Source: an uncultured Rikenellaceae bacterium (GTDB taxonomy: Bacteria > Bacteroidota > Bacteroidia > Bacteroidales > VadinHA17). From it: a stretch of 39,244 nucleotides of DNA. The position numbers and the translations under genes were made by a program. The DNA lies in NCBI GenBank assembly GCA_964411285.1, contig CAYPKL010000187.1, positions 1 to 39,244 of the forward strand, read 5' to 3'. Under the pieces are notes generated by a model. The model was not told the origin of the DNA. It saw nothing but the letters and a program-made list of their open reading frames with translations, and searched no databases. This document shows positions 11,727 to 30,599 of this stretch, piece by piece (positions within the stretch are counted from its first letter, which is position 1; each line of letters starts with the position of its first letter).

Positions 11727-12426
11727 GGTATTTATTATTCAACACATCGTCTGAATTGAACTGGAATCCAAGACGTTTACCTGTTATCACCCGTGAATGT
11801 TGAATTTTCGCCTCAGCTTGTCCTACCGTCGCTATTTTAACCGTATCGTATGGGGGGACAAGTAAATCGAATTCAAGTGAGTATTGTATTGCTGTAGAAA
11901 TAATTAATTGTAATGAGGACCTGCTGATTGCCTCATTCCCGTAATTTGAGAAAAGCATTCCCATCTGTCTTTTACCTTCAACAAAATACTGGTTCTCATG
12001 ATTAATGAATATTCTTGCGATTAAATAACCAAGATCATCTAATCTGGAATACCTGAATGAATCAAAAAGGAAGTTATAAATATTAATTATGCCCGAGTAT
12101 GCGTTGAATTTATTCTTTTGTATATAGGGTGTTTTCCATGCAGGATGTTCACGGTCGAACTGAAATATATTTGAATGCATGCTAAAAAGCAGTATATCAC
12201 CTGCTACTTTCACCTGTGCATCAAAATTGCTCCTGTCGGTATATTCCAATTTAATCCGGTTATCAAGCCCTCCCAGACTGGTATTTATATCCCTCGACAA
12301 AGTTTTTAAGATATCCTTTATAACAGCGAACCACTCAAGGGTATTATCATATACTTTTTGTTTAAGGAGCGATTTTTCCTTTAGGGTTCCGATAATTACA
12401 AGCTTTTTATCATCCATTTCGGCCAT
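11716..12426 (-). CDS. Uncharacterised cytoplasmic protein (no recognisable domain)
   Basis: Intact 236-aa ORF with no signal peptide. Its stop overlaps the start of the Omp85-like gene by 11 nt, and it lies downstream of proS on the same strand. Confidence 0.6.
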   Translation of the reverse strand: MAEMDDKKLVIIGTLKEKSLLKQKVYDNTLEWFAVIKDILKTLSRDINTSLGGLDNRIKLEYTDRSNFDAQVKVAGDILLFSMHSNIFQFDREHPAWKTPYIQKNKFNAYSGIINIYNFLFDSFRYSRLDDLGYLIARIFINHENQYFVEGKRQMGMLFSNYGNEAISRSSLQLIISTAIQYSLEFDLLVPPYDTVKIATVGQAEAKIQHSRVITGKRLGFQFNSDDVLNNKYHET

Positions 12427-14050: not shown

Positions 14051-14141
14051 TTTTTGGTATGGTATTTGTTTTAATACATAAAAAATAAGGTCGTAAAAAT
14101 AAATATAAAACTTGGAAATTAATAAAACCAGGGGGTGCATC

Positions 14142-15593
14142 ATGAAAACAATATCTTACATTGGCATCTTATCGGCACTTCTGCTTACAGGATTCTCTGC
14201 AAAAGCACAGGATGCTGACTATGAAAATTACAGCAACGATGACGCCAGAGTAATCGTAAACAACTATTATGATAATAATGGCTCTGATTACTATTATTCA
14301 TCAAGAATTAACAGGTTTCACAGATCGTATGCTGCTTTTGATTATTATTCACCTGTCTATACTGATTCATACTGGTACGATTACGATCCATGGTCGTGGG
14401 GTATAAGTATTTACAGCGGAGGTTTCGGATTTAACCTTGGATATAATCCCTATTATTACAATTATTATCCTTACAGCTACGGTTGGAACGATCCATATTA
14501 TTATGATTCTTATTACCGGGGATATTCCCCCTGGTACTATAGTTACTGGAGACCATCGATCTGCTGGGGATTAGGAAGTCTCTGGTCAGATTTTACGTGG
14601 GGTTTAACCCGACCCTTCTATTGGATGAATAACATGTGGCACGGATTCGGACATTCATATTATGGCTATCATAATCATTTTTATAATGATTATTCCTACC
14701 GTTATTCATCAGATTACGGGAGGCATAATTTTGAAGCAGGAGGACGTGGTTTCAGACAGGGATCCAATCAGGAGTCCAGGAGAGGTGAATCAATTAATAA
14801 TCCTTCAGGGAGAGATGGAAATTACCGCCGGGAAAATTATGATAACGTATCCGGAAATATTGAGGGAAGAAGGAACGGCAATTCCGCAATTAACAACGGA
14901 CAAAATCGCGGTTCAGCCGACAGATCATATTCAGCCGGCAGAGGATCATCATCTCCGGATTTACGAAGATCAGATAATTCTGGTTCTGCTTCCCGGAATT
15001 CCGGAAATCAGGGTAGCTATAACACTACCAACCGGAGAACCGGTGAAATGAGGAGCAATCCGGGATACAATAACAGGGTAAATCAGAACGCTTCCAGTCC
15101 TGCTACACGAAGAGCAGTTGAAACAGGTTCGAACCGTGGATATGCAATTAACAATAATTCATCAGGAAATTCAAATGTATCCAAACGGAGCACAATGGCC
15201 GGTAATGCAAACCAGCCCTCCTCCCGGCGTTCCTCAGTGTATGGTCAGACTAATAATTCGCACAGCACCAACCGGTCTGTGTCCGGAAGTTTGGGCAGAC
15301 CTTCAGTCAAGTCCGGATCTATGAGTGCATCAGCAAGAAATTCTGGCTCAATATCACGCAATTCAGGCTCTATATCGCGTAGTTCCGGCTCAATGTCACG
15401 CGGCTCAGGTTCAATGTCACGAAGTTCAGGCTCAGTGTCACGAAGTTCAGGCTCAGTGTCACGAAGTTCGGGGTCAATGTCACGAAGTTCAGGCTCAATG
15501 TCAAGAAGTTCGGGTTCAATGTCACGAAGTTCGGGCTCAGTGTCACGAAGTTCGGGCTCTTCTCATTCCTCCGGAAACAGGGGAAGAAGATAG
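14142..15593 (+). CDS. Secreted low-complexity protein: signal peptide, Tyr/Trp-rich region, Ser/Arg/Asn/Gly-rich polycationic tail with 7-aa tandem repeats
   Basis: Signal peptide '[24 protein letters not shown]' at the ATG at 14142. The aromatic-rich block includes e.g. '[35 protein letters not shown]'. The tail ends '...[21 protein letters not shown]'. It is a paralog of the next gene. Confidence 0.7.
15339..15569 (+). repeat. 11 tandem copies of a 21-nt unit (consensus agt tca ggc tca atg/gtg tca cga) encoding (S/N/G)SGS(M/V/I)SR, in frame inside the 14142-15593 CDS
   Basis: Counted directly. Units begin at 15339, 15360, 15381, 15402, 15423, 15444, 15465, 15486, 15507, 15528 and 15549. 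Units 5 and 6 are identical, and the last unit is degenerate. Confidence 0.95.
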
Positions 15594-15748: not shown

Positions 15749-17074
15749 ATGAAAGCACTATACTACATATTCGGAATTGTAATTCTTACTCTGGCTTCCT
15801 GCTCTTCAGGACTTTATGTAGGAACTGAATATGATGATATTTACTATCAAAAATCAGACAGACCGGTAACCCGGGCTCAGTCGGCAGATAATCAGCCTAT
15901 TGTTGAGGGTAATCTTAAGTCGGATAATTATTATAATAATATCTATGCAACTGATACTCTTGTATCCAATGAATATTCAGACGCAGTTGACAATAATGAT
16001 GCAGGGGTTTATAATGACTATTATGATAATTTTGATAATTACTCTTATTCAGGCAGGTTAAGGAGATTTTATGGAAGTTCCTTTTATCCTTACTGGAGAG
16101 ATCCTTTTTACATGATGCCTTCTTTCGGATACAATTCTTTCTATGGCGGCTTCCCTTATTCCTATAATCCTTATTCCTACGATTCATATTTCTATGATCC
16201 ATACTATTCATATGGTTATGGCGGTTATTATGGCGGCGGGTTTAATGGCGGTTATTATGGCAACTATTTTTACGGAGGATTATATAACAGATTTTACAGT
16301 CCTTATTACAGTTACTATTCTCCTTATTATGGTGAAAGTAATATCTCTTATGGAAGAAGAGAAAGGCAGAGCACTTATTCGACAAAATGGTCAGGCGGCA
16401 ATGCTTCTCCCGAGGCTTCAGCATCCAGAAGAGCTACAAATGCCACCGGAGGATCAGGTACCTCAGAAGCCGCCAGGCCTGCTTCAGGTGAGGTTGTAAC
16501 CTCAGGTTCACGGAGAACTTCATCACAGGGGACTTCTCAGCAAGCTGGAACAGCTACTGAAAGAAAACTTGATCAGAATTCTTCAAAATCCGGTAGTGAG
16601 AACCTGTCAGGCAATCAGTCAAGAAGGAGTTCCGCTGATTCAAGACCTGAATACAACTCTGTCAACAGGAGCTATACACCCAGCTACAGTAATCCCAGGA
16701 TGAGCACACGGCCATCATACAATAATACAAGGGTTAATTCAAATGTTAACAACAATAATTCATCAACCCGCAGATATTATCAGAATTCATCAAACAGCGG
16801 AAGAAACAATTCATCATATTCTTCAGGTCAGCCCAGATCCAACTCTTCAAATAGTGGTTCAGGAAGTTATTCAACTCCCTCCAGAAGAAGCTCAGGCGGA
16901 GGAACCTACTCAGGAGGATCTTACCGTTCATCAGGAGGATCAACCTATAGCAGTGGTTCATCTTCAGGATCATATTCGAGAAGCAGTGGTGGCTCATATT
17001 CATCAGGCTCCTCCTCTTCTTCATCCTCCGGGAGTTCATCAGGCTCATCAGGCTCATCAGGCAGAAGGAGATAG
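15749..17074 (+). CDS. Lipoprotein paralog of the preceding gene: lipobox, Tyr/Gly-rich region, Ser/Arg/Asn/Gly-rich tail
   Basis: Lipoprotein signal 'MKALYYIFGIVILTLASC'. It shares the module 'NDYYDNFDNYSYSGRLRRFY' with gene A. The aromatic block includes 'SYGYGGYYGGGFNGGYYGNYFYGGLYNRFYSPYYSYYSPYYG'. The tail ends 'SSSSSSSGSSSGSSGSSGRRR'. Confidence 0.7.
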   Translation: MKALYYIFGIVILTLASCSSGLYVGTEYDDIYYQKSDRPVTRAQSADNQPIVEGNLKSDNYYNNIYATDTLVSNEYSDAVDNNDAGVYNDYYDNFDNYSYSGRLRRFYGSSFYPYWRDPFYMMPSFGYNSFYGGFPYSYNPYSYDSYFYDPYYSYGYGGYYGGGFNGGYYGNYFYGGLYNRFYSPYYSYYSPYYGESNISYGRRERQSTYSTKWSGGNASPEASASRRATNATGGSGTSEAARPASGEVVTSGSRRTSSQGTSQQAGTATERKLDQNSSKSGSENLSGNQSRRSSADSRPEYNSVNRSYTPSYSNPRMSTRPSYNNTRVNSNVNNNNSSTRRYYQNSSNSGRNNSSYSSGQPRSNSSNSGSGSYSTPSRRSSGGGTYSGGSYRSSGGSTYSSGSSSGSYSRSSGGSYSSGSSSSSSSGSSSGSSGSSGRRR

Positions 17075-18635: not shown

Positions 18636-18660
18636 TACTTTGAACTACTTCCGGTTAAAA

Positions 18661-18684
18661 AGGGCTCATAGAGCCTTTTTTTTT
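18661..18684 (+). terminator. Rho-independent terminator after the FadL-like gene
   Basis: 'agGGCTCataGAGCCttttttttt': a 5-bp GC stem extendable by G-U and A-U pairs, a 3-nt loop, and a 9-T run. Confidence 0.55.
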
Positions 18685-18733: not shown

Positions 18734-19336
18734 CTAAAGATACTCAATTGATTCCGGCCCCATATTGAATATAAGGTCAAGAATACTTAGCCGGGGTACA
18801 AATCCGCTGTTATTAAATACTTGTATATATGCCTTTTGATGGATATCTGACTTCACTTTTGGTGATATTCGGTACCTAAAATCATTATCTGGAACGGTAA
18901 CAGGTTCGTAAGAAAGGGTGTAAGAAATATTCTTATTTATTTGAAGGATTTCAAGGCATTTCTTAAGCAGTTCAATATTAAGATCGAGAAGGAATTTGTG
19001 ATTGCTGATCAGTATCTTTTCAAAACTGTCAGAAAAAAACTGGAAATAGGGTGAACGGTTATAAGAGGAGGTGAGGGCCCTTAAATGAATCTGCTGCCAT
19101 CTTTTTGAGTAATCGATCCTTACATCCTTTGTTTGTGTTTTAATACTTCCGCCTTTGAGAACAGGGACAGAAAGGTTCATTATACCGTTTGATGTGAGAA
19201 TCCTGCACCTGTTACGGTATGTCTGCTTCAGATAATTTTCTTCCTGTTCAATGCAGACTTCTTCAGAATTCCTGATATGACCGAAATATTCTGAGGGAGG
19301 GAAATAGGCAGTAGAGAGTAGTATTTTCCCGGGCAT
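18734..19336 (-). CDS. WbqC-family protein (function unknown)
   Basis: N-terminus 'LSTAYFPPSEYFGHI...EENYLKQTYRNRCRILTSNGIMNLSVPV' matches my memory of the WbqC-like family signature. The gene starts 7 nt after the larB stop. Confidence 0.7.
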   Translation of the reverse strand: MPGKILLSTAYFPPSEYFGHIRNSEEVCIEQEENYLKQTYRNRCRILTSNGIMNLSVPVLKGGSIKTQTKDVRIDYSKRWQQIHLRALTSSYNRSPYFQFFSDSFEKILISNHKFLLDLNIELLKKCLEILQINKNISYTLSYEPVTVPDNDFRYRISPKVKSDIHQKAYIQVFNNSGFVPRLSILDLIFNMGPESIEYL

Positions 19337-19343
19337 AAAAAAT

Positions 19344-20093
19344 CTACTTCATCTGATTGATCATACTTGCAGAAAAACCGGCTCCGAATCCATTATCGAT
19401 ATTTACCACGGTCACGCCGGAGGAGCAGCTGGTGAGCATCGCGAGAAGTGCGGAGATGCCTCCGAAATTTGCACCATATCCTACACTTGTAGGTACTGCA
19501 ATTACAGGTTTATCTACCAGACCGCCTACTACGCTTGCCAGTGCACCTTCCATTCCTGCTATTACAATAACTACCCTGCAGCTTCTTATTTCCGGTAGCT
19601 TGTCGACCAGACGGTGAATCCCCGCAACTCCGGCATCGTAAATCCTTAATATTTTATTACCAAGAAGTTCAGCGGTTACCGCAGCTTCTTCTGCAACAGG
19701 AATATCAGATGTCCCGGCGGTAATAACTGCAATTCTACCTTCCGGACTTACAAGTTTCTTCTTCTGAACGCTAATGATCCTGGCTTCGGGATAAAAAAGT
19801 GCTGAAGCGACTGCTTTTTTCACAGCCTTAAACATCTCTTCACTGGCACGCGTTCCAACAACATTGTTTTCTTTCTCAGACATTATTCTGAAAATTTCAA
19901 CCACCTGACCGACTGATTTGCCTGCACAATATATAATTTCAGGGTAGCCGGTACGAATTTCCCTGTGATGATCTATTCTTGCAAATCCAAGATCTTTGTA
20001 AGGAAAATCTCTGAGGACTTCAAGAGCCTGTTCAACACTTTTTTTTCCATCCCTTACTTCATTAAGAAGATTTTCAATTTCTTTTTTTGTCAT
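19344..20093 (-). CDS. larB: Nickel-pincer cofactor biosynthesis protein LarB (PurE-like NaAD carboxylase/hydrolase)
   Basis: ~120-aa N-terminal extension followed by a PurE-like domain 'IAVITAGTSDIPVAEEAAVTAELLG...VIVIAGMEGALASVVGG'. The start overlaps the larE stop (ATGA). Confidence 0.85.
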   Translation of the reverse strand: MTKKEIENLLNEVRDGKKSVEQALEVLRDFPYKDLGFARIDHHREIRTGYPEIIYCAGKSVGQVVEIFRIMSEKENNVVGTRASEEMFKAVKKAVASALFYPEARIISVQKKKLVSPEGRIAVITAGTSDIPVAEEAAVTAELLGNKILRIYDAGVAGIHRLVDKLPEIRSCRVVIVIAGMEGALASVVGGLVDKPVIAVPTSVGYGANFGGISALLAMLTSCSSGVTVVNIDNGFGAGFSASMINQMK

Positions 20094-20893
20094 ACAATTG
20101 AATTTACCGGATCGGAGCTACCTGATCTGTATCCTTCGAGATCCAAAGATATATATCTGAATCCGATTTTTTTTAGATTCTCTATAATAAGTTCTTTTTC
20201 AGGTGTGTGAACAATCTTTTCCAGATATCCCGGGAGGCACTCAAGTCTTGCCAGATCACCATGGACTCTGACTCTGGTTCCCGGATAGCCTTTTGAAGTA
20301 AGAAAATACTCTGCTTTTTCAATCATATTAAGCACTACGGTATCGATTTCATTATTATAAGGAATTCTTGTAAGCAGACAGGCCATTGCAGGTTTGTCCC
20401 AAAACTGAAGGCCGGAATGGTGTGAAATCTCCCTTATATCATTTTTCGTCATTCCTGCCTCGAGCAGCGGACTTCTTATATTTAGCTCCTGTAAAGCTTT
20501 AAGCCCGGGCCTGAAAACTTTTGTGTCATCCGCATTTGTTCCGTCAATAACGTGGCTGTATCCATTTTCTGCTGCAAACGAAAGTAATTCCGTAAAAAGA
20601 GTCTTTTTACAGAGATAACATCTTTCAACTGGATTATTTCTGATAACCTCAGGGAAAGTAATATCTATTATTTTGTGATTTATTCTGTGGGTTATGGCAA
20701 ACTCAGCAGCTTCTTTTATTTCAACGGCTGGAATATAGGGTGTCCTGATTGTTACACCAACGATATTGAGACTCTTCAGAGTATGCGCCCTGTAAAGAAG
20801 AAATGAACTGTCAACTCCTCCTGAAAAGGCAACGACGAATGATTTGAGGTCCTTCAGAATTGTATCGAGTTTTTCCAGTAGATTATTTTCCAT
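20090..20893 (-). CDS. larE: NPN cofactor sulfur-insertion protein LarE (ATP pyrophosphatase, PP-loop)
   Basis: PP-loop 'VAFSGGVDSS', 'CYLCKK' (C92, C95) and 'PAMACLLTRIPY' (C172). Confidence 0.85.
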   Translation of the reverse strand: MENNLLEKLDTILKDLKSFVVAFSGGVDSSFLLYRAHTLKSLNIVGVTIRTPYIPAVEIKEAAEFAITHRINHKIIDITFPEVIRNNPVERCYLCKKTLFTELLSFAAENGYSHVIDGTNADDTKVFRPGLKALQELNIRSPLLEAGMTKNDIREISHHSGLQFWDKPAMACLLTRIPYNNEIDTVVLNMIEKAEYFLTSKGYPGTRVRVHGDLARLECLPGYLEKIVHTPEKELIIENLKKIGFRYISLDLEGYRSGSSDPVNSIV

Positions 20894-20896
20894 GGT

Positions 20897-22075
20897 TTAA
20901 TTCTGAGCCTTGGTTATTACTGAAATAATATTGTTATATACATCTTTTAAGGGGATTCTCCTTTCCAGGGCAATTCTTTTGCAATCTTCAAATTCAGGTT
21001 TAACAGATACCACTTTCCCCTTGAAATATGAGTGTTTTAAAGTGACCTCACCATATATTGTGGGAACCTTGCTGAATTCTCTTACAAGAGTATCTTTCCT
21101 GAATTGAAAAGTTCTGATCCCAAGTGATGTTGACTCTGAGAACACGATCTCTTTAACTAAGTCAGCCAGACCTGTTTCGCAGATTATGTTCAGTATTATT
21201 CCGGGTCTTCCTTTTTTCATGATGATGTTTGTATAAAACACATCTGAAGCGCCTGCTTTAAAAAGCCGGTCGGATATGTGCTCATAGAATTCAGGATTCA
21301 TGTCGTCGATATTACACTCAATATGGAGAGCATCATGTCCTGTATTTTCATTATCAGCAATTTCTCCAAGCGAAACTCTCAGAAGATTAGGAACATCAGG
21401 ATGATCCTTATGACCAACTCCATAGGCTGTTTTACTGATCCTGACAGAAGCGTTGCTGCCAAAATCAGTTCCCAGAGCGGAAAGTATTGCAGCACCGGTT
21501 GGGGTTGTTGCCTCAAAATCGACCCCCCCCTTCCTTACAGGAATCCCTTTGATGATTTCAATTGTTGCCGGAGCAGGAACAGGTAGTTTGCCATGTTCAC
21601 ATCTGACAAAACCTCCGCCAAGTTCAACTTCTGATACAAAAACCCTGTCAACATTAAGGGCATGAAAACAAATTGCTGCACCTGTAATATCAATAATGGA
21701 ATCAATGGCTCCAACCTCATGAAAATGAACCTCATTCACATCGATCCCATGAACAAGAGCTTCTGCTTCGGCCACCTTTCTGAAAATCTTCATTCCCGTT
21801 TTCTTAACGTCCTCATTAAGTGAGGAACCTGAAATTATTTGCTCAATATCTGAAAGGTGCCTGTGATTGTGATCATGGAGGGTCTGCTTTACCGTGACTT
21901 TGGTTCCCATTATGCCGTGCCGCTGGTCTTTTTCTGAAATCAGTTCCCAGCCTTTGAGATTTAATTTACTTAGTTCTTTAATAAGGAAATCTTTGTCGAC
22001 TCCTAACTCCAGCATTGCACCTAAATTCATATCACCGCTGATCCCGGAAAAACAATCATAAAATAATACTTTCAT
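20897..22075 (-). CDS. larC: Nickel insertion protein LarC (DUF111), single intact ORF
   Basis: N-terminus 'MKVLFYDCFSGISGDMNLGAM', His-rich 'TLHDHNHRHLSD', and a length typical of full LarC1+LarC2. Confidence 0.88.
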   Translation of the reverse strand: MKVLFYDCFSGISGDMNLGAMLELGVDKDFLIKELSKLNLKGWELISEKDQRHGIMGTKVTVKQTLHDHNHRHLSDIEQIISGSSLNEDVKKTGMKIFRKVAEAEALVHGIDVNEVHFHEVGAIDSIIDITGAAICFHALNVDRVFVSEVELGGGFVRCEHGKLPVPAPATIEIIKGIPVRKGGVDFEATTPTGAAILSALGTDFGSNASVRISKTAYGVGHKDHPDVPNLLRVSLGEIADNENTGHDALHIECNIDDMNPEFYEHISDRLFKAGASDVFYTNIIMKKGRPGIILNIICETGLADLVKEIVFSESTSLGIRTFQFRKDTLVREFSKVPTIYGEVTLKHSYFKGKVVSVKPEFEDCKRIALERRIPLKDVYNNIISVITKAQN

Positions 22076-22253
22076 ACATTCTTAACATTAAAAATATTAA
22101 ACAAATAATAACAAGGAAAGTTAATATAGATCAAATTCTGATTAATGAATTCAATCGGGTTGCTAATATACAATTTACATTGATTATGGAATAATAATAA
22201 AAAAATGTCGTATTTTTCGAATCCTTTCTGTTTATGGTTAGCAATGATTGGAA

Positions 22254-23177
22254 ATGATGAAAAGAAGAGCTTTTTTTAAAACCTCTCTCAGTGCCGGACT
22301 AGCCACAGGAGCTGTTTTTAGCTTAGGTGGTTATAATAAACTATGGGCATCTTCTCCGGTTGCTGCAAAATACGATATGATTGCAGTTATGGGTGGTAAC
22401 CCTGACTCAATGTTCGATCTGGGCATACAGGAGTTGGGAGGGATAGGTGAATTTGTAAAGAAAGGTCAAAAAGTACTGATTAAACCTAATATTGGATGGG
22501 ATGTCCTGCCTGACCTCGCTGCAAATACCAATCCCCTGCTTGTAAAAAGAATTATAGAACACTGCTTTAAAGCTGGTGCTAAGGAAGTTTATGTACTCGA
22601 TCATTCAATTGACAACTGGATAAATACCTATAAGAATTCCGGTATTGAAAAAGCCGCTAAATCAGCCGGGGCAAAAGTAGTACCCGCTAATTCTGAAAAA
22701 TATTATCAGGAGATAAGTATTCCCGCCGGAGTAAAGCTTAAAAACGCTAAAGTCCATGAGCTTCTACTGGAGACAGATGTTTATATAAACGTTCCTGTTT
22801 TAAAGGACCACAACTCAACACGAATGACCTGTTCCCTGAAAAATGCAATGGGACTTGTCTGGAACAGGGGATACTGGCATGCCAACAACCTCCATCAGTG
22901 CATTGCCGATTTTGCGTTGTTTGAGAAGAAACCGGCGCTTAATATTATTGACTGCTACAATGTTCTCGTAAAACATGGTCCAATGGGAGTTTCAAAAGAA
23001 GATGTTGTACAAATGAAGTCACTTATTATAACAACTGACTGGGTTGCAGGTGATGCCGCTGCTGCCAAAATGCTTGGTATTGAACCTGAAAAAATTGATT
23101 ATCTTCTTATTGCAAGCAAAATGGGAATTGGGAACATCAAGCTGGACACGCTTAATATTAAGCGTATTAAAATGTAG
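22254..23177 (+). CDS. Tat-signal DUF362-domain protein
   Basis: Twin-arginine signal 'MMKRRAFFKTSLSAGLATGAVF'. DUF362-like motifs 'KVLIKPNIG', 'VPVLKDHNSTRMTCSLKNAMG' and 'IIDCYNVLVKHGPMG' are present. There is no Cys cluster motif. Confidence 0.65.
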   Translation: MMKRRAFFKTSLSAGLATGAVFSLGGYNKLWASSPVAAKYDMIAVMGGNPDSMFDLGIQELGGIGEFVKKGQKVLIKPNIGWDVLPDLAANTNPLLVKRIIEHCFKAGAKEVYVLDHSIDNWINTYKNSGIEKAAKSAGAKVVPANSEKYYQEISIPAGVKLKNAKVHELLLETDVYINVPVLKDHNSTRMTCSLKNAMGLVWNRGYWHANNLHQCIADFALFEKKPALNIIDCYNVLVKHGPMGVSKEDVVQMKSLIITTDWVAGDAAAAKMLGIEPEKIDYLLIASKMGIGNIKLDTLNIKRIKM

Positions 23178-23183
23178 TTGAAA

Positions 23184-24743
23184 ATGACCTCATCCTTTCT
23201 CAGAAGATTTCGCATAGTTTTTTCTGCAGTTATCCTGGTATTCTTCATTTTTATTTTTATCGATTTCAAAGCGATAATGCCTAAGAATTATATTAATTAT
23301 CTGCTTTATTTCCAGTTTATTCCTTCTGTTATAAAATTTTTTAACCTTAAGACAATTGCTGCAGGAGGATTTTTAGTTGTGCTGTTACTTACTCTCCTCT
23401 CCGGCAGGACATATTGCTCATTCCTTTGTCCTCTTGGAATAGGACAGGACCTTTTCAGCAGAATAGGTGGTTACATCAAAAAAAAATTCAGAAGGTTTGG
23501 TTATAAAAAACCTTATACAATTATCCGTTATTCAATTCTGGTTATTACAATCGCCGGGACTATAATCTGGGGTATATATTTTTTGACACTCCTGGATCCC
23601 TACAGCATATTCGGCAGATTTATGACCTATCTTATAAAACCGGTTGTTTTATTGTTAAATAATTTTTTTTCGGGGATACTTGTTAAATTTGATAATTATT
23701 CATTAAATCATATTCAACTGGATGGCTATGAACTTATTACTTACTCCTTACCATCAGCTTTCTTCATTATTGTAGGCCTCCTGTCACTGACAAAAGGCAG
23801 ACTCTATTGTAATATGATCTGTCCGGTAGGTACTTTTCTGGGATTTCTGTCAAAAATATCACTTTTCCGGATCAGGTACAATGAAAGCAAGTGTACCCGA
23901 TGCGGAAGATGTTCAATTGGATGTAAATCTTCATGTATCGACTTCCTGAATCACGAAATTGATGTAACCCGGTGTGTTAATTGTTTTGACTGCATTTATA
24001 CTTGTCCCGAAAAAGCTTTGTCTTACACCTTTATTGGTCACGAAACTGAAGACCGGAAAACTGATGAGAGCAAACGTAAATTTATCGCCGGATCACTTCT
24101 TCTTCTTTTTGGCATACCATATTCTTCAAGAGGACAGGAGAAAAGCGTTCCTGTTCCGAAAAGAGAGTCTACCGTTAAAGAAGAAAAAACATTTCCGGTC
24201 TGCCCTCCGGGCGCCGGATCTATTGAGGATTTCAACAGTCATTGTACAGCTTGCTCACTTTGCATTACAGTGTGCCCGAATAATGTGCTTGAGCCGGCCA
24301 TAAGGCAATACGGTATAGCTGGATTTATGCAGCCGGTGATGGATTATCATAAAGGTTTCTGTCAGTATAACTGCACAAAATGTACAGAAATTTGTCCCAC
24401 CTATGCATTAAAACCACTTTCTCTCGAGGCTAAGAAACTGAGTCAGATCGGGAAAGCTATATTTATTAAGGACAATTGCATCGTTAAAACTGAGAAGACT
24501 GCCTGTGGAGCCTGCTCAGAAAGCTGTCCGACAAAAGCTGTTTACATGATCCCGTATGAGGGTAATCTTGTTATTCCTGAAACAAACGAGGAAATATGTA
24601 TTGGCTGCGGACATTGTGAAAATGCTTGTCCGACAACTCCATACAAAGCTATTTATGTAAATGGTAATCCTATACATCTTGCAGCCAAAAAGCCTGAAGT
24701 AAAAGAAACGGGAATTACCAAACCTGAGGATTTCCCGTTTTAG
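23184..24743 (+). CDS. Membrane-bound NapH/MauN-like polyferredoxin (multiple 4Fe-4S motifs)
   Basis: The N-terminal half has several TM helices and two CxxxCP motifs ('CSFLCPLG', 'CNMICPVG'). The C-terminal half has about six ferredoxin-type motifs ('CTRCGRCSIGC', 'CVNCFDCIYTCP', 'CTACSLCITVCP', 'CTKCTEICP', 'CGACSESCP', 'CIGCGHCENACP'). Confidence 0.8.
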   Translation: MTSSFLRRFRIVFSAVILVFFIFIFIDFKAIMPKNYINYLLYFQFIPSVIKFFNLKTIAAGGFLVVLLLTLLSGRTYCSFLCPLGIGQDLFSRIGGYIKKKFRRFGYKKPYTIIRYSILVITIAGTIIWGIYFLTLLDPYSIFGRFMTYLIKPVVLLLNNFFSGILVKFDNYSLNHIQLDGYELITYSLPSAFFIIVGLLSLTKGRLYCNMICPVGTFLGFLSKISLFRIRYNESKCTRCGRCSIGCKSSCIDFLNHEIDVTRCVNCFDCIYTCPEKALSYTFIGHETEDRKTDESKRKFIAGSLLLLFGIPYSSRGQEKSVPVPKRESTVKEEKTFPVCPPGAGSIEDFNSHCTACSLCITVCPNNVLEPAIRQYGIAGFMQPVMDYHKGFCQYNCTKCTEICPTYALKPLSLEAKKLSQIGKAIFIKDNCIVKTEKTACGACSESCPTKAVYMIPYEGNLVIPETNEEICIGCGHCENACPTTPYKAIYVNGNPIHLAAKKPEVKETGITKPEDFPF

Positions 24744-24850: not shown

Positions 24851-25255
24851 ATGAATCCCTCACATATTGAACATATTGGAATTGCAGTTGAAAATCTCGA
24901 GAATTCAATCAGATTATACGAAACTATCTTCGGATTAAGTTGCTACAGAATTGAAGAAGTAGCCGACCAGAAAGTCCGTACCGCATTTTTCAAAATAGGC
25001 AAGACAAAAATTGAGCTTCTGGAATCGACAGACCCCGAAGGACCGATCAGTAAATTTATTCAGAAGAGAGGCGAAGGTGTTCATCACCTTGCATTTGCAG
25101 TTGATAATATTGAAGAAAAACTTGAAGCGGCACAAAAAGCAGGGGTAAAACTGATTGATTCTGTTCCAAGAGCAGGGGCAGAGGGATTGGAAATTGCATT
25201 TTTGCACCCGAAGTCCACTTATGGGGTGCTTATTGAATTATGTGAAAAAAAGTAA
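24851..25255 (+). CDS. mce: Methylmalonyl-CoA epimerase (VOC/glyoxalase fold)
   Basis: 'IEHIGIAVENLENSIRLYETIFG...GEGVHHLAFAV...IAFLHPKSTYGVLIEL', 134 aa, located immediately upstream of the carboxyltransferase. Confidence 0.85.
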   Translation: MNPSHIEHIGIAVENLENSIRLYETIFGLSCYRIEEVADQKVRTAFFKIGKTKIELLESTDPEGPISKFIQKRGEGVHHLAFAVDNIEEKLEAAQKAGVKLIDSVPRAGAEGLEIAFLHPKSTYGVLIELCEKK

Positions 25256-25274
25256 ATAAGTTATTATTAAATAA

Positions 25275-26834
25275 ATGGATAGTCAGGAAAAAGTCAAAAA
25301 ATTAATCGACCTGAGAGAAAAAGCCCGTCTGGGAGGAGGAATTCAAAAAATTGACGACCAGCATTCCAAAGGACGATTAACAGCAAGGGAAAGAATTAAT
25401 ATCCTGCTTGATGAAGGCAGTTTCGAAGAGTATGATATGTTCGTGACCCACAGGACTGAAGATTTTGGAATGGGTAATAAAAAATATCTTTCCGATGGAG
25501 TTGTTACAGGTCATGGTACCATTGACGGAAGAGTAGTGTTTATTTTTGCCCAGGACTTTACAATATTCGGCGGATCACTGTCGGAAACATTTGCTCTTAA
25601 AATCTGTAAGATAATGGATCAGGCCATGAAAGTTGGAGCTCCTGTAATTGGTATTAACGACAGCGGAGGAGCAAGGATCCAGGAAGGTGTAAGAAGCCTG
25701 GCCGGATATGCCGAAATTTTCCAGCGTAATATTCTGGCATCAGGCGTGATTCCACAAATATCAGCAGTCTTTGGCCCGTGCGCGGGAGGAGCAGTTTATT
25801 CGCCCGCTCTTACTGACTTCATCATTATGAGTGAGAAGAGCAGCTATATGTTCGTAACGGGACCAAAAGTTACAAAAACAGTGACAGGTGAGGATATTTC
25901 AACAGAGAACCTTGGCGGATCCCATGTTCATGGAACCAAATCGGGAGTTGCTCATTTTGTCGTTGATGAGGAGGAACATGGCCTTTTGCTTATCCGCAAA
26001 CTACTTAGTTATCTTCCACAGAATAATATGGAGGAGCCGCCTCTAACCGAATGTGACGATCCGATAGAAAGGAAAGATGATGACCTGAACAGAATTATTC
26101 CTGAAAATACAAATCAACCTTATGAGATAAAGGATATTATTTATAAAATTATTGATAATAATGAATTCCTGGAGATCCACGCCGGGTATGCCAGAAATAT
26201 AGTTGTTGGTTTTGCAAAAATGGGTGGTATGCCTGTTGGAATTGTTGCAAATCAACCTAATTTTCTGGCCGGAGTGCTCGACATAGATGCATCGAGAAAA
26301 GCAGCAAGATTTGTAAGGTTTTGTGATGCTTTTAACATTCCTATTATTACCCTGGTTGATGTCCCCGGCTTCCTGCCAGGCAGTGGACAGGAGTATGGCG
26401 GCATAATCGTCCATGGGGCAAAATTGATGTTTGCTTATGGAGAGGCCACAGTACCAAAAGTTACGGTCACTCTGCGAAAGTCGTATGGGGGAGCTCATTG
26501 CGTAATGTCATCAAAACAGTTGCATGGCGATATTAATTATGCATGGCCTTCAGCCGAAATTGCCGTGATGGGGCCATCAGGGGCAATAGAGATCCTCGAA
26601 GGCAGGACATTAAGTGAGATTAATGACCCTGATAAAAAAGCGTCATACATTTCTGAAAAGGAAACTGAATACCGGAATAAATTTGCAAATCCCTATGAGG
26701 CAGCCAGATATGGCTACATCGACGATGTCATTGAACCCAGGAATACAAGATTCAGAATTATCAGGGCCCTGCGGACTCTGGCAACAAAGAAAGATCCGGG
26801 ACCTATGAAAAAACATGCCAATATACCTTTGTAA
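25275..26834 (+). CDS. mmdA: Methylmalonyl-CoA decarboxylase alpha subunit / acyl-CoA carboxyltransferase
   Basis: Carboxyl-transferase family motifs 'FAQDFTIFGGSL', 'NDSGGARIQEG' and 'GPCAGGAVYSPALTDF', 519 aa. The decarboxylase assignment (rather than carboxylase) rests on operon context. Confidence 0.85.
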   Translation: MDSQEKVKKLIDLREKARLGGGIQKIDDQHSKGRLTARERINILLDEGSFEEYDMFVTHRTEDFGMGNKKYLSDGVVTGHGTIDGRVVFIFAQDFTIFGGSLSETFALKICKIMDQAMKVGAPVIGINDSGGARIQEGVRSLAGYAEIFQRNILASGVIPQISAVFGPCAGGAVYSPALTDFIIMSEKSSYMFVTGPKVTKTVTGEDISTENLGGSHVHGTKSGVAHFVVDEEEHGLLLIRKLLSYLPQNNMEEPPLTECDDPIERKDDDLNRIIPENTNQPYEIKDIIYKIIDNNEFLEIHAGYARNIVVGFAKMGGMPVGIVANQPNFLAGVLDIDASRKAARFVRFCDAFNIPIITLVDVPGFLPGSGQEYGGIIVHGAKLMFAYGEATVPKVTVTLRKSYGGAHCVMSSKQLHGDINYAWPSAEIAVMGPSGAIEILEGRTLSEINDPDKKASYISEKETEYRNKFANPYEAARYGYIDDVIEPRNTRFRIIRALRTLATKKDPGPMKKHANIPL

Positions 26835-26845
26835 ATCCGATAAAA

Positions 26846-27208
26846 ATGCATCCTGGCATGATCCTTATTACAGAAATGACACCACACCAGATTACTCTGG
26901 TTAATGTGCTTATAATTTTAAATATAGCTTTACTTTCAGTTGTATTCCTGTTCCTGTTTTTCCGTTACCTGCTTCCATGGATTTCCACCTTCAGGCCCAA
27001 CAAGAGAAATAACAAAATTTCTGATAAGACAGCTGTGAAGCAATTTCATGATGAGCGTTCCGCTGACAAGGCAGCTGTAGCAATGGCCCTGTACCTTTAT
27101 TTTAATGAAACCCATGATGAGGAGAGCGATATAATTACAGTAAAACGCGTTTCTAAAACATATTCACCATGGAGTTCAAAGTTATACAGTATGCGAAATC
27201 TACGATAG
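26846..27208 (+). CDS. OadG-family / MmdD-like small membrane subunit
   Basis: One TM helix ('LVNVLIILNIALLSVVFLFLFF') followed by 'AAVAMALYLYFNETHDEESDIITVKRVSKTYSPWSS', which resembles the Bacteroidota OadG-like proteins found between mmdA and the BCCP gene. Confidence 0.6.
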   Translation: MHPGMILITEMTPHQITLVNVLIILNIALLSVVFLFLFFRYLLPWISTFRPNKRNNKISDKTAVKQFHDERSADKAAVAMALYLYFNETHDEESDIITVKRVSKTYSPWSSKLYSMRNLR

Positions 27209-27268
27209 TATCAATCTATTTATTATTCACTTAAGCGGTTAGTTAAATAACCGGTTTATTTCTGGGAA

Positions 27269-27688
27269 ATGAAAAACTTTAAATTTGCGATTGACGGAAA
27301 AGAATACGACGTGGAAGTCCTCTCACTCAATGGGACTACTGCTAAATTGAAAGTAAATGGCACTGACTATAACGTTGAGATACAAAAAGAAACGAAAGTC
27401 AATAAGACTCCGATTGTTGTGAGATCATCAATCAGGGAACCTCAGAAAGATATTGAGAAAAAGACCGGCGGTCCGAAAACTGAAGTTAAGTCCCCGCTTC
27501 CAGGCATTATTGTAAAGATATTTGTTACTGTCGGTGAGTCGGTTCAGAAAAATCAGAGATTATTCAGTCTTGAGGCAATGAAAATGGAAAATGAAATAAA
27601 AGCGGAACGAGACGGAGTAATTACAGGTATTAAGGTTGCACCTGGGCAATCAGTACTTCAGGATGAAAATATTTTGGAAATGGATTAG
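27269..27688 (+). CDS. mmdC: Biotin carboxyl carrier protein (MmdC-like)
   Basis: Biotinylation motif 'LEAMKMENEI' in a C-terminal biotinyl/lipoyl domain, 139 aa. Confidence 0.85.
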   Translation: MKNFKFAIDGKEYDVEVLSLNGTTAKLKVNGTDYNVEIQKETKVNKTPIVVRSSIREPQKDIEKKTGGPKTEVKSPLPGIIVKIFVTVGESVQKNQRLFSLEAMKMENEIKAERDGVITGIKVAPGQSVLQDENILEMD

Positions 27689-27762
27689 TAATACCTGCAA
27701 TTTTAATTACCTCACCTGTAATCTATTCTGTTTCTTCCGGCTGTTTACATAAAAAAAAATAG

Positions 27763-27770
27763 TAGGTTTG
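27763..27770 (+). promoter_or_regulatory. Bacteroidota -7 promoter box (TAGGTTTG)
   Basis: Exact TAnnTTTG match 25 nt upstream of the citDE ATG, inside the 106-nt gap after the BCCP gene. It overlaps a small hairpin, gtttgt-attgaa-acaaac. Confidence 0.5.
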
Positions 27771-27794
27771 TATTGAAACAAACCAGTTGGTAAT

Positions 27795-29012
27795 ATGAGC
27801 ATTATGTTGGCACATGCTGGAAATTCAGGTCCCAAAGTCAGATCCGATTGTGAGGTAACTCTTGAGTTGAAAAACGAGGGAGGAATAGTAATTGAACTGA
27901 AATCAAAGGTTTACCCTTTATATGGCGTTTCAATAAAAAATCTTTGCCTTGATATCCTGTCATTTTTCGGAATTAAAGATGCTTATCTGAAAATCGAAGA
28001 TGCCGGAGCTCTGCCTTTTGTTATTTCGGCCCGACTGGAAGCTGCTGTAAAGCAAATTGTGGATACGGACCTTGAATATCTTCCTGATCTTATTTCTGAA
28101 AACCTCTATTCAACAAACGCTGACAGGTTTCGTTTTTCTCGTCTTTATCTCCCCGGCAATACACCCGGCATGATGATAAATGCGGGATTACATTCCGCAG
28201 ACGGCATTATCCTGGACCTTGAGGATTCAGTAGCTCCTGAAAGAAAAAATGAAGCCAGAATACTTGTCAGGAACGCTTTGAGGCAGGTAAATTTCTATGG
28301 TGCCGAGCGTATGGTAAGGATAAATCAGGGGGACCGCGGACTGAGGGATCTTGATTCCGTTATACCCCATAATGTAAATCTGGTACTTATTCCCAAATGC
28401 GAGAACCCCGATGCTATTGTTTCTGTAGAAAAACGGATTTCAGAAATAAAGAGGCGCCATAACCTTAATAATCCAGTATATCTTATGCCGATCATTGAAT
28501 CGGCGCTCGGAATTGAAAAAGCATTCATGATTGCCGGATCTTCAGAAAACATTGTGGCATTGGCAATAGGACTGGAAGATTTTACTGCTGATCTGGGCGT
28601 TCAGAGAACAAAGGAGGGTATAGAGTCACTCTATGGAAGAACAAGGTTGGTGATAGCTGCCAAGGCTGCGGGTAAACAGCCGATTGATTCTGTGTTTTCG
28701 GATGTAGATGATATGGATGGACTTCTGAAAAATGTCCTGGCCTCGAAAGCTCTGGGTTTTGAAGGAATGGGATGTATACACCCTCGTCAGATACCAGTTA
28801 TCAGGCAGGGATATGCTCCTGAAAATGGTGAAATAGAAAAATCCAAAATGATCGTTATGGCTTTTAAAGAGGCTGAAAAAAAAGGTCAGGGAGTAGTTGC
28901 CCTGGGATCTAAAATGATCGATTCGCCTGTGGTGGCTCGGGCACAAAAAACAATTGACCTTGCAATTAAGCTGGGGTTATTACCAGACAACTGGATAAAT
29001 GAAATTTCCTAG
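27795..29012 (+). CDS. citDE: Fused citrate lyase acyl carrier protein (gamma, CitD) and citryl-CoA lyase (beta, CitE)
   Basis: The N-terminal ~95 aa are CitD-like ('AGNSGPKVRSDCEVTLE...', compare the AGTLESxDV prosthetic-group Ser region). The remainder is CitE/HpcH-like ('RLYLPGNTPGMMINAGLHSADGIILDLEDSVAP', 'MPIIESALGIE', 'LEDFTADLG'). Confidence 0.75.
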   Translation: MSIMLAHAGNSGPKVRSDCEVTLELKNEGGIVIELKSKVYPLYGVSIKNLCLDILSFFGIKDAYLKIEDAGALPFVISARLEAAVKQIVDTDLEYLPDLISENLYSTNADRFRFSRLYLPGNTPGMMINAGLHSADGIILDLEDSVAPERKNEARILVRNALRQVNFYGAERMVRINQGDRGLRDLDSVIPHNVNLVLIPKCENPDAIVSVEKRISEIKRRHNLNNPVYLMPIIESALGIEKAFMIAGSSENIVALAIGLEDFTADLGVQRTKEGIESLYGRTRLVIAAKAAGKQPIDSVFSDVDDMDGLLKNVLASKALGFEGMGCIHPRQIPVIRQGYAPENGEIEKSKMIVMAFKEAEKKGQGVVALGSKMIDSPVVARAQKTIDLAIKLGLLPDNWINEIS

Positions 29013-29042
29013 AAAAGAATAAAAATTAACCTGACAGGCGAT

Positions 29043-30599
29043 ATGGCAATCCCTACTGTTATTAATGCTGCCGGCAGAGCAGTGCCTCTCGAAATCAATG
29101 GTAAAGCTGTCATCCCTTTTAAAGGAGTAGGAGGGTACAGGCCATCAGGAAATAAGTATGGCCCGCCAATCCCGACTTGTGCAGATTTTCCTGGTGATGG
29201 CAACAAGGTAGTATCATCACTTGAAGAAGCCCTTAGCAGGTGTGGCCTCCGTGACGGAATGACAATTTCAACCCATCATCACTTACGGGATGGCGATCTT
29301 GTGAGTAACAAGGTATTTGACCTGGCGTCGGCAATGGGGGTGAAAGATCTTGTCTGGTTCCCTTCAGCTTCATTTCCATGTAATGATCCTGTAATTAAAT
29401 ATCTTGAAGACGGAACCATTAACAGGATTGAAGGTAGTATGAATGGTCCGCTGGGAAGGTTCGTTTCCGAGGGAAGGATGAAAGGTACTGCCGTATTGCG
29501 ATCACATGGCGGACGTGTTCAGGCTATACAGGATGGTGATGTAAAAATAGATATCGCAGTAATAGCAGCTCCTTCTGCCGATTATTACGGAAATGCAAAA
29601 GGTACTGGTGGCCGTTCTGCCTGCGGTGTTTTGGGTTATGCAAAGGTTGATTCAATGTATGCTGAAAAGGTGATTGTTGTGACCGACAATCTGGTGGATA
29701 TTCCATGCTTTCCAATGGAGGTTGAAGGGAATAATGTTGACTATGTAGTTGTTGTTGATAAAATAGGGATTCCGGAAAAAATTGTGTCAGGCACTACCCA
29801 GATCACAAAGAGCCCCGACAGATTATTGATTGCAGAACTCACCGCATCTTTTCTGGAAAAATCTGGCATTCTCAAAGATGGTGTTACAATGCAGGCAGGG
29901 GCTGGTGGTACTTCATTGGCAATAGCCGTGTTCCTACATGAGATTTTAAGGAAAAGGGGGTGGAAGTCAAAATTTGGATTCGGTGGCAGCACCAGGTACA
30001 TGGTTGAAATGCTTGAACAGGGGCAGATGGGATATATTCTTGATGCACAGGTTTTTGATCTTGACTCTGTAGTTTCAGTTGGAAAAAATCCCAACCATAT
30101 CCCATACTCGGTTTTTAATGCTTATAACTACCATTCTAAAGGTAATCTTACCAGTATGATGGATATTATGATACTTGGCGCTACCGAAATTGACCTTAAA
30201 TTCAATGGTAATGTGGTCACTCACTCTGACGGATATCTGCTTCACGGAATCGGAGGCTGGCAGAATTGTCTGCACGCAAGAAACGTAATATTGCCGGTAC
30301 CTCTTTTCCGCGACAGGATACCCGTTATTGTTGATGAGGTTACAACACTTTGTGGTCCCGGAGAGCTTATTGATGTAATTATCACCGAAAGAGGGATAGC
30401 AATTAATCCTTTGAGAAAGGATCTTATTGAGAGCGTCAGAAACAGCAATCTTCCTGTTGTGACCATTGAGGAGCTTAAAGCTGAAGCTGATAAAATATGC
30501 GGTATACCAATGAAACCTGAGTTCGAAGATGATATTGTTGCAGCCATAAAATGGGTCGATGGCACCGTAATTGATGTTGTCCGAAAAATTAAATCCTGA
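29043..30599 (+). CDS. citF: Citrate lyase alpha subunit (citrate CoA-transferase)
   Basis: 518 aa. 'KVVSSLEEALSRCGLRDGMTISTHHHLRDGD' and the overall length and pattern are typical of CitF. It sits immediately downstream of citDE. Confidence 0.8.
   Translation: MAIPTVINAAGRAVPLEINGKAVIPFKGVGGYRPSGNKYGPPIPTCADFPGDGNKVVSSLEEALSRCGLRDGMTISTHHHLRDGDLVSNKVFDLASAMGVKDLVWFPSASFPCNDPVIKYLEDGTINRIEGSMNGPLGRFVSEGRMKGTAVLRSHGGRVQAIQDGDVKIDIAVIAAPSADYYGNAKGTGGRSACGVLGYAKVDSMYAEKVIVVTDNLVDIPCFPMEVEGNNVDYVVVVDKIGIPEKIVSGTTQITKSPDRLLIAELTASFLEKSGILKDGVTMQAGAGGTSLAIAVFLHEILRKRGWKSKFGFGGSTRYMVEMLEQGQMGYILDAQVFDLDSVVSVGKNPNHIPYSVFNAYNYHSKGNLTSMMDIMILGATEIDLKFNGNVVTHSDGYLLHGIGGWQNCLHARNVILPVPLFRDRIPVIVDEVTTLCGPGELIDVIITERGIAINPLRKDLIESVRNSNLPVVTIEELKAEADKICGIPMKPEFEDDIVAAIKWVDGTVIDVVRKIKS

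Follow-up and report, generated by a model that had tools for sequence, protein, structure and literature searches.

A DUF362 protein with a predicted Tat signal as candidate client of an orphan nickel-pincer nucleotide operon in Bacteroidales

Which enzyme uses nickel-pincer nucleotide (NPN) as a cofactor in bacteria that carry the lar genes for its synthesis without the lactate racemase gene larA beside them? Cyanobacteria are the classic group with larB, larC and larE and without larA. Overall, the three genes occur together without larA in ~15% of genomes (PMC11796402). LarA was the sole protein known to tether NPN until 2026 (PMC13524815), and the nature of the remaining, unknown clients is, as an earlier note on the DNA described here rightly pointed out, a recognized open question (PMC11796402, PMC13524815). 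Here, we analyze this question for a contig of an uncultured Rikenellaceae bacterium (CAYPKL010000187.1, assembly GCA_964411285.1; its 39,244 nucleotides are henceforth termed the window), in which an orphan lar set forms a larC-larE-larB-wbqC operon. The note had singled out the product of the last gene, a WbqC-family protein, as a new NPN-utilizing enzyme or an extra maturation factor. Our data do not support this proposal. Instead, we favor as the better client candidate a DUF362 protein that is encoded divergently from larC together with a membrane polyferredoxin. This protein appears to be distantly related to the cofactor-binding domain of LarA, and its gene family adjoins lar genes in several independent genomic contexts. 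We give the DUF362-polyferredoxin pair a somewhat less than even chance of being the NPN client of this locus.

The biosynthetic half of the locus is of an already known type. LarB and LarE both scored well above the cutoffs of NCBIfam equivalog models (297.8 bits against 175 for NF033503 and 290.2 bits against 150 for TIGR00268), and LarC covers both halves of the enzyme, with 214.8 bits against 90 for LarC1 (TIGR00299) and 138 against 50 for LarC2 (NF052512). In agreement with the earlier description, LarC is a single intact open reading frame (ORF) with an HDHNHRH patch (Table 1), which spans residues 67-73 and of which three homologues all keep His67, His69 and His71. The LarE translation shows SGGVDS in its P-loop and further along CYLC...MAC, which corresponds to CxxC-C, the signature of the catalytic [4Fe-4S]-type LarE described for Thermotoga (PMC9283937). 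As in the lar system of Lactiplantibacillus plantarum, LarB, LarE and LarC are thus all present above their equivalog cutoffs and form a standard Lar-type biosynthesis set, from which NPN production is predicted. The L. plantarum operon has the order larA-larB-larC1/C2-larD-larE. The window differs from it in containing no Lar_N/LarA_C protein, in its LarC, which is one ORF rather than a frameshifted pair, and in its LarE, which is of the CxxC-C [4Fe-4S] type rather than the sacrificial single-Cys type.

Direct reading of the gene junctions confirmed the tight packing reported before: larC and larE are separated by a 3-nt gap (TAA, 'acc', ATG), larE and larB share an ATGA (4-nt overlap), and larB and wbqC are separated by a 7-nt gap (TAG, 'atttttt', ATG). 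Just 3' of wbqC lies a G+C-rich hairpin with an 11-bp stem and T-runs on both strands, which is consistent with a single transcript terminating there. Co-transcription of the four genes, which had been called almost certain, is probable on the basis of this packing and the hairpin. We also ran a scan for sigma-70-type promoters, the consensus of which is uninformative for Bacteroidota promoters.

Domain and homology searches, together with the equivalog scores, bear out the view of an orphan NPN set without a nearby canonical larA. Pfam detected neither Lar_N nor LarA_C domains in the window ORFs that reach 110 aa or more, and tblastn of three LarA proteins against the window and 82 related loci gave a best E value of 0.29; the absence of LarA covers these 39 kb and the related loci. 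A match to PF00248, the family of the NphT-like aldo-keto reductases, was likewise missing from all window ORFs of at least 110 aa. The previous statement that the window holds no LarA-type gene therefore stands for Lar_N/DUF2088, but it passed over a gene from the same clan that lies 172 bp upstream of larC and encodes a DUF362 protein. Pfam groups DUF362 with the N-terminal domain of LarA (DUF2088) in clan CL0471, which is why DUF362 has served as the outgroup of a LarA tree (PMC11770544).

The DUF362 protein matches PF04015 across the entire profile (positions 1-200 of 200; 158.2 bits against a gathering threshold of 24). If an ATG located six bases downstream is used, as in the public gene call, it comprises 307 aa. 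DUF362 is a very large family in anaerobes, and its members are often fused or paired with ferredoxins. Every DUF362 protein tested (those of the window, L083, L089, L090, L114 and L167) also gave a sub-cutoff match to NCBIfam NF052623, the 'Npun_F2552 family', a name that denotes a Nostoc gene. The N-terminus of the window protein bears a twin-arginine signal, KRRAFFK ... LWA/SS, which reads MMKRRAFFKTSLSAGLATGAVFSLGGYNKLWA/SS and in which the motif precedes a hydrophobic stretch and an AxA-like cleavage site. Each of 34 close homologues keeps Arg6 and Arg7, and the TAT_signal family PF10518 is precomputed for the homologues P0485 and P0493. Export through the twin-arginine translocation (Tat) pathway is therefore predicted. 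The protein has no conserved Cys cluster, and a Tat signal on a protein without a Cys cluster of its own suggests that a cofactor would be loaded in the cytoplasm.

Several comparisons suggest a remote homology between this protein and the N-terminal domain with which LarA binds its cofactor. L. plantarum LarA (checked against PDB 5huq) matches PF04015 with E=5e-5 and 23.9 bits over residues 83-246. A hidden Markov model (HMM) of LarA aligned 12 DUF362 representatives in one register, in which the LarA segment '...EADLLIAEGFIEPH174FFAGFSGGRK184' faces the DUF362 pattern '...ADVxINVPxxKxH188xxxxxTxxxK198N', equating His188 with LarA His174 and Lys198 with LarA Lys184; one of the 12 alignments extends to LarA His200, which is paired with His211. 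Using hhalign with 99 DUF362 and 10 LarA sequences, we obtained a co-linear alignment of 250 columns with the same residue pairs plus His211 and His200. At P=0.058, this run supports the alignment register but is no proof by itself. In the reverse direction, LarA was not retrieved with an HMM of the DUF362 subfamily. Neither Lar_N (PF09861) nor LarA_C (PF21113) was found in the DUF362 protein, for which PF04015 was the only family reported even at E<=10; as a positive control, LarA matched both PF09861 and PF21113. In LarA, Lys184 is the thioamide tether of the cofactor, His200 is a nickel ligand and His174 is a catalytic acid/base (PMC11770544, PMC13524815). Judged from alignments that are individually weak, DUF362 would thus keep the NPN-tethering Lys and the nickel-ligating His.

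The aligned residues are conserved within the family. We searched 1.8 billion representative sequences, retrieved 5,254 relatives of the window protein and aligned 99 of them (32-52% identity). Near-invariant positions in this alignment include Lys79-Pro80-Asn81, Asp177, Asn181, His188, Lys198-Asn199, Gly202, His211 and Asp235, with His188 and Lys198 each conserved in 94% and His211 in 93% of the sequences. The His188-Lys198-His211 triad is complete in 93 of the 99 relatives; four have none of the three residues and two keep one. The triad thus tends to be kept or lost as a whole. Asn81 is missing as well from all six of the deviating proteins (P0262, P0265, P0284, P0298, P0306 and P0329), which fits a single functional site, and the six look like catalytically dead paralogues. 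Every lar-linked DUF362 protein retains the triad.

Genomic neighborhoods provide a separate connection between DUF362 and the lar genes. A LarC-anchored scan of species-representative genomes yielded 80 loci, all from metagenome-assembled genomes (MAGs) of Bacteroidales, with LarC homologues of 63-74% identity. Of 72 of these loci, 69 have a DUF362 gene upstream of larC; however, the 80 loci constitute one syntenic clade and are uninformative on the independence of gene linkages. Beyond this clade, no fewer than three additional contexts of independent origin show DUF362 beside lar genes, namely one Streptomyces cluster and two metagenomic architectures. In Streptomyces sp. NBC_01450, the DUF362 gene is divergent from an operon that ends with larE-larB-larC, and no LarA is encoded nearby. 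For the metagenomic contexts, we collected a semi-random sample of 80 DUF362 loci (703 kb). In L114 and L116, an operon encodes DUF362, a ferredoxin with two [4Fe-4S] clusters and LarE, and adjoins genes for aconitase-X and an altronate/galactarate dehydratase; in L167, a DUF362-polyferredoxin pair is convergent with larE. The LarE proteins of all three loci score above the equivalog cutoff. LarE thus occurs at 3 of 80 metagenomic DUF362 loci, compared with a single match in total for eleven control genes in the same 703 kb.

Co-occurrence was also seen in the two chromosome-sized PLSDB records that contain DUF362 (Streptomyces and Acetoanaerobium), both of which carry larB/larC. The L. plantarum LarA query had no match in these two records at E<=1e-5, although the same query also missed a Lar-domain protein of Loktanella and may thus overlook divergent LarA homologues. 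The Acetoanaerobium noterae record (NZ_CP154629.1, 2.63 Mb, labeled as a plasmid; L092 and L182) has larB-larC at ~326 kb and DUF362 at ~1,082 kb, with no LarE homologue closer than 10 kb to larB-larC or closer than 8 kb to DUF362. No lar genes are adjacent to the DUF362 loci of Acetoanaerobium and Subdoligranulum.

The gene that directly follows DUF362 encodes a membrane polyferredoxin, which we propose to be its electron-transfer partner. The polyferredoxin resembles NapH/MauN, NapF and NapG and has Fer4_5 modules in common with NapH, but it stays below the cutoff of all these models, including those for NapH/MauN (TIGR02163, 91.3 bits against 213; NF007013, 80.1 against 234). The arrangement recalls NapG/NapH, where a Tat-exported soluble subunit, as predicted here, is combined with a membrane protein that contains CX3CP (Fer4_5) motifs and several 4Fe-4S domains. 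In contrast to NapG/NapH, the Tat subunit is a DUF362 protein without a Cys cluster rather than a ferredoxin, the models for NapH, NapF and NapG score far below cutoff, and nitrate reductase genes are absent here. The DUF362-polyferredoxin pair also occurs in Ignavibacteriota, Tenuifilaceae, Parabacteroides and the metagenome locus L167.

These features can be combined into a working model. LarB, LarE and LarC, the genes of which would be transcribed as a unit with wbqC, would make NPN in the cytoplasm, where DUF362 would tether the cofactor through Lys198 and add His211 as the last ligand of nickel. Once folded and loaded, the protein would be exported via the Tat pathway and dock on the membrane polyferredoxin. 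There, the tethered NPN could take a hydride from, or give one to, a periplasmic substrate, and an Fe-S chain leading to the quinone pool would serve to re-oxidize or re-reduce it. The recurrent pairing of DUF362 with ferredoxins, soluble in L114/L116 and membrane-bound in the window and L167, argues for net conversion of hydride to electrons and hence for an oxidoreductase, not a racemase. The same direction is indicated by the comparison with LarA: the window protein belongs to the same clan and has putative equivalents of His174, Lys184 and His200, but its ~300 aa include neither the C-terminal domain of LarA nor a conserved counterpart of His108, and it has a Tat signal and a polyferredoxin partner, differences that point to net redox chemistry outside the cytoplasm instead of cytoplasmic racemization. 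The candidate is neither a LarA nor related to NphT, the client reported in PMC13524815. The two share the neighborhood logic, i.e., a gene beside larBCE in larA-less loci, and NphT holds its cofactor by a Lys tether and coordinates nickel with a His, like the residues aligned in DUF362, yet NphT is an unrelated hydride transferase with the triosephosphate isomerase (TIM) barrel of aldo-keto reductases, has no Fe-S partner and is not exported (PMC13524815).

It is possible, albeit doubtful at present, that this reading extends well beyond the window and that triad-positive DUF362 proteins are a second large branch of the LarA superfamily, in which NPN serves as a redox cofactor wired to Fe-S partners, and a major class of the missing clients in larA-less anaerobes. 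This branch would encompass ~5,000 related clusters at 50% identity and possibly the cyanobacterial Npun_F2552 family. With similar reservations, the partner may be a soluble ferredoxin in some lineages, whereas Bacteroidales and Ignavibacteriota may use a Tat-exported subunit and a membrane polyferredoxin. If DUF362 does bind NPN, thousands of proteins would gain a function, and nickel-pincer chemistry would extend from 'borrowed hydride' racemization to net electron transfer, also outside the cytoplasm. The overlooked DUF362-polyferredoxin pair is what keeps this locus of interest.

A number of observations weigh against DUF362 as the client. Three loci of the clade (L037, L044 and L068) keep larCEB-wbqC but lack the adjacent DUF362-polyferredoxin pair, and within the clade the link to the lar genes is therefore stricter for wbqC than for DUF362. 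No lar gene was detected at 77 of the 80 metagenomic DUF362 loci, half of which lie on contigs shorter than ~6 kb, nor within 8-10 kb of four other DUF362-polyferredoxin loci, including those of Rosettibacter, a Tenuifilaceae MAG and Parabacteroides. At the protein level, the C-terminal domain of LarA is absent and the equivalent of His108, which like His174 is catalytic in LarA, is not conserved: the position aligns to Asp122 in a mixed Asn/Asp column, and the nearest His, His119, is a His in 37 of 99 relatives. Some LarA homologues have just one catalytic His (PMC12611868). With default settings, hhalign of DUF362 against a profile of three LarA sequences was not significant and chose another short segment, in which the N-terminus of DUF362 was matched to the beginning of the LarA C-domain. 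The AlphaFold2 model of DUF362, built from a shallow alignment of ~80% identical sequences, reached a predicted local distance difference test (pLDDT) score of only 46.9. Foldseek with this low-confidence model returned only generic Rossmann/alcohol-dehydrogenase matches at a template modeling (TM) score of ~0.2 and is uninformative. A PDB sequence search with the DUF362 protein gave nothing meaningful, and in the open-access literature we found no paper that links DUF362 or WbqC with NPN.

Several observations could be taken to favor WbqC as an NPN-dependent enzyme or extra maturation factor, a role that would explain its probable co-transcription with larCEB. Within the clade, wbqC follows larB in all 70 loci with enough sequence, at a spacing of about -2 to +12 nt and even where WbqC identity falls to 42%; the link survives the broken upstream synteny of L068 and the loss of DUF362 in L037 and L044. 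The only terminator found lies behind wbqC, and Lys, His and Cys residues are conserved in the family, to which no function has been assigned. However, because the entire neighborhood of ~20 kb is syntenic, the adjacency of larB and wbqC counts as one ancestral event. Mean identity across the clade is highest within the operon for LarB (79%), with 69% for LarC and 76% for DUF362, whereas WbqC is the fastest-evolving protein of the block at 57%. The protein is a clear family member (135.2 bits for PF08889 against a gathering threshold of 21.3; homologues are labeled 'WbqC family protein' by NCBI), and tblastn of PLSDB retrieved its closest homologues outside the clade with 36-42% identity over nearly the full length. 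The best matches, from Parabacteroides distasonis (42%), Prevotella sp. 299 (40%) and Bacteroides finegoldii (39%), reside in dapB-S26 peptidase-(lepB)-wbqC clusters. In Bernardetia, wbqC adjoins a Clp ATPase gene. More distant homologues occur in amino-sugar clusters, such as that of Bacillus cereus, which also encodes a nucleotide-sugar dehydrogenase, an epimerase, two aminotransferases of the DegT type, GNAT acetyltransferases and a PIG-L deacetylase. All of these wbqC loci are free of lar genes. Conversely, no WbqC was found near the lar loci of Streptomyces, Embleya, Acetoanaerobium and Loktanella or at the 80 metagenomic DUF362 loci.

The idea that wbqC occupies the position where the client gene usually sits is not supported either, as wbqC is the last gene of its operon, whereas larA lies upstream of larB in the Loktanella locus. 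In the L. plantarum operon, too, larA is upstream of larB. A Rhizobium locus tells no more than that larC directly follows larA. The predicted structure points in another direction as well. The AlphaFold model of WbqC (pLDDT 81.7) had BshC (4wbd) as its sole Foldseek match, with a probability of 0.99 and a TM score of 0.50 over 158 columns, at 8% sequence identity and E=0.044. No LarA, aldo-keto reductase or dehydrogenase, nicotinamide-type Rossmann enzymes included, was matched by the model, and a PDB sequence search with the WbqC profile gave nothing meaningful. BshC, which has a Rossmann-like fold of the ligase type, is the cysteine-adding enzyme of bacillithiol synthesis and differs from WbqC in its size of 540 aa, compared with 200 aa. 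In Bacillus, wbqC stands beside genes for a PIG-L (BshB-like) deacetylase and sugar aminotransferases, neighbors that fit amide formation on a de-acetylated amino sugar. The BshC-like fold and the PIG-L neighbor suggest that WbqC may be a ligase that forms amides, with an amino sugar or an envelope component as its substrate. Most likely, the clade has here its own version of a gene that is widespread in Bacteroidales and otherwise lies 3' of dapB-lepB, and wbqC is probably a passenger housekeeping gene that rides on the lar transcript by an accident of gene order. We thus consider a role of WbqC in NPN use or maturation improbable.

A more serious competitor is a client located elsewhere in the genome, be it a canonical LarA or an enzyme of the aldo-keto-reductase or ornithine-cyclodeaminase type, with wbqC and DUF362-polyferredoxin being adjacent by chance. 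The analyzed sequence represents 39 kb of a genome, most of the DUF362 loci examined have no lar neighbor, and NPN clients with unrelated folds exist (PMC13524815). Further client types are also suggested by Clostridium butyricum megaplasmids, which carry larB-larC and have no match to DUF362 or to the L. plantarum LarA query. Against mere chance stand the four unrelated contexts in which lar genes lie beside DUF362, their enrichment over control genes, and the predicted homology of DUF362 to LarA with conservation of the cofactor-binding Lys and His; moreover, Bacteroidota are not named among the phyla that hold most LarA homologues (PMC11770544). We regard a distant client as quite possible, without expecting it. 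Finally, the lar cluster might be decaying or repurposed in this clade and provide neither finished NPN nor a client, as could be read from the 10 of 76 species-level loci in which the stretch from larC to larB cleanly lacks larE. However, larB, larE and larC of the window are intact and score well above equivalog cutoffs, the mean clade identities of LarB and LarC indicate purifying selection, and the ten larE-less genomes could encode larE elsewhere. Decay is in our view highly improbable.

Table 1. Features of the lar locus and its divergent neighbors, with positions in the window.
Feature	Position	Strand	Description	Support
larC	20897..22075	-	CTP-dependent nickel insertase (cyclometallase), 392 aa, single ORF	PF01969 E=5e-143
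larE	20090..20893	-	PP-loop sulfur insertase, predicted [4Fe-4S]-dependent type, 267 aa	TIGR00268 290.2 bits
larB	19344..20093	-	Carboxylase/hydrolase acting on nicotinic acid adenine dinucleotide (NaAD), 249 aa	NF033503, AIRC domain
wbqC-family gene	18734..19336	-	200 aa, final operon gene	PF08889 E=4e-39
Terminator-like hairpin, bidirectional	18657..18681		Between wbqC and a convergent gene for a FadL-like outer-membrane protein	
larC/DUF362 divergent intergenic region	22076..22247		172 bp, A+T-rich; both promoters presumed here	
DUF362 protein	22248..23177	+	309 aa, predicted Tat signal, divergent from larC	PF04015 E=3.6e-46
Membrane polyferredoxin	23178..24743	+	521 aa, directly after DUF362	Two NapH-type Fer4_5 modules, several 4Fe-4S dicluster domains, Fer4_7

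Across the clade, the conserved block of ~20 kb runs from genes for citrate lyase, glyoxalase, polyferredoxin and DUF362 through larCEB-wbqC to the FadL-like gene and proS. Among the three loci without the DUF362-polyferredoxin pair, the glyoxalase gene directly abuts larC in L037 and L044, and the upstream context of L068 is entirely different. The ten larE-less loci (L003, L015, L017, L021, L023, L036, L039, L048, L050 and L061) keep larC, larB, wbqC and DUF362, and the species concerned have either a second larE elsewhere in the genome or an altered pathway. A role of WbqC as LarE substitute in these loci was considered and dropped, since wbqC is present with or without larE.

Downstream of the polyferredoxin gene, on the plus strand at 24851-30599, lies a block whose synteny with the lar locus is shared by most relatives. 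This block encodes a glyoxalase-family protein (methylmalonyl-CoA epimerase-like), a carboxyltransferase, a 120-aa ORF with no significant family match, a biotin carrier, a CitD-CitE fusion and CitF, and looks like a decarboxylase plus citrate-lyase module. On the other side of the operon, between the FadL-like gene and proS, a lipoprotein-like ORF of 441 aa (15749-17074, plus strand) has no Pfam match, is of extreme Tyr/Ser/Asn/Gly-rich low complexity and shows 36-59% identity across the clade. Three further ORFs of 649, 236 and 493 aa at 9777-12426 (minus strand) and 14112-15593 (plus strand) have no Pfam family; the 649- and 236-aa ORFs overlap by 11 nt and are conserved beside tilS in relatives, with equal sizes in the gene calls of L002.

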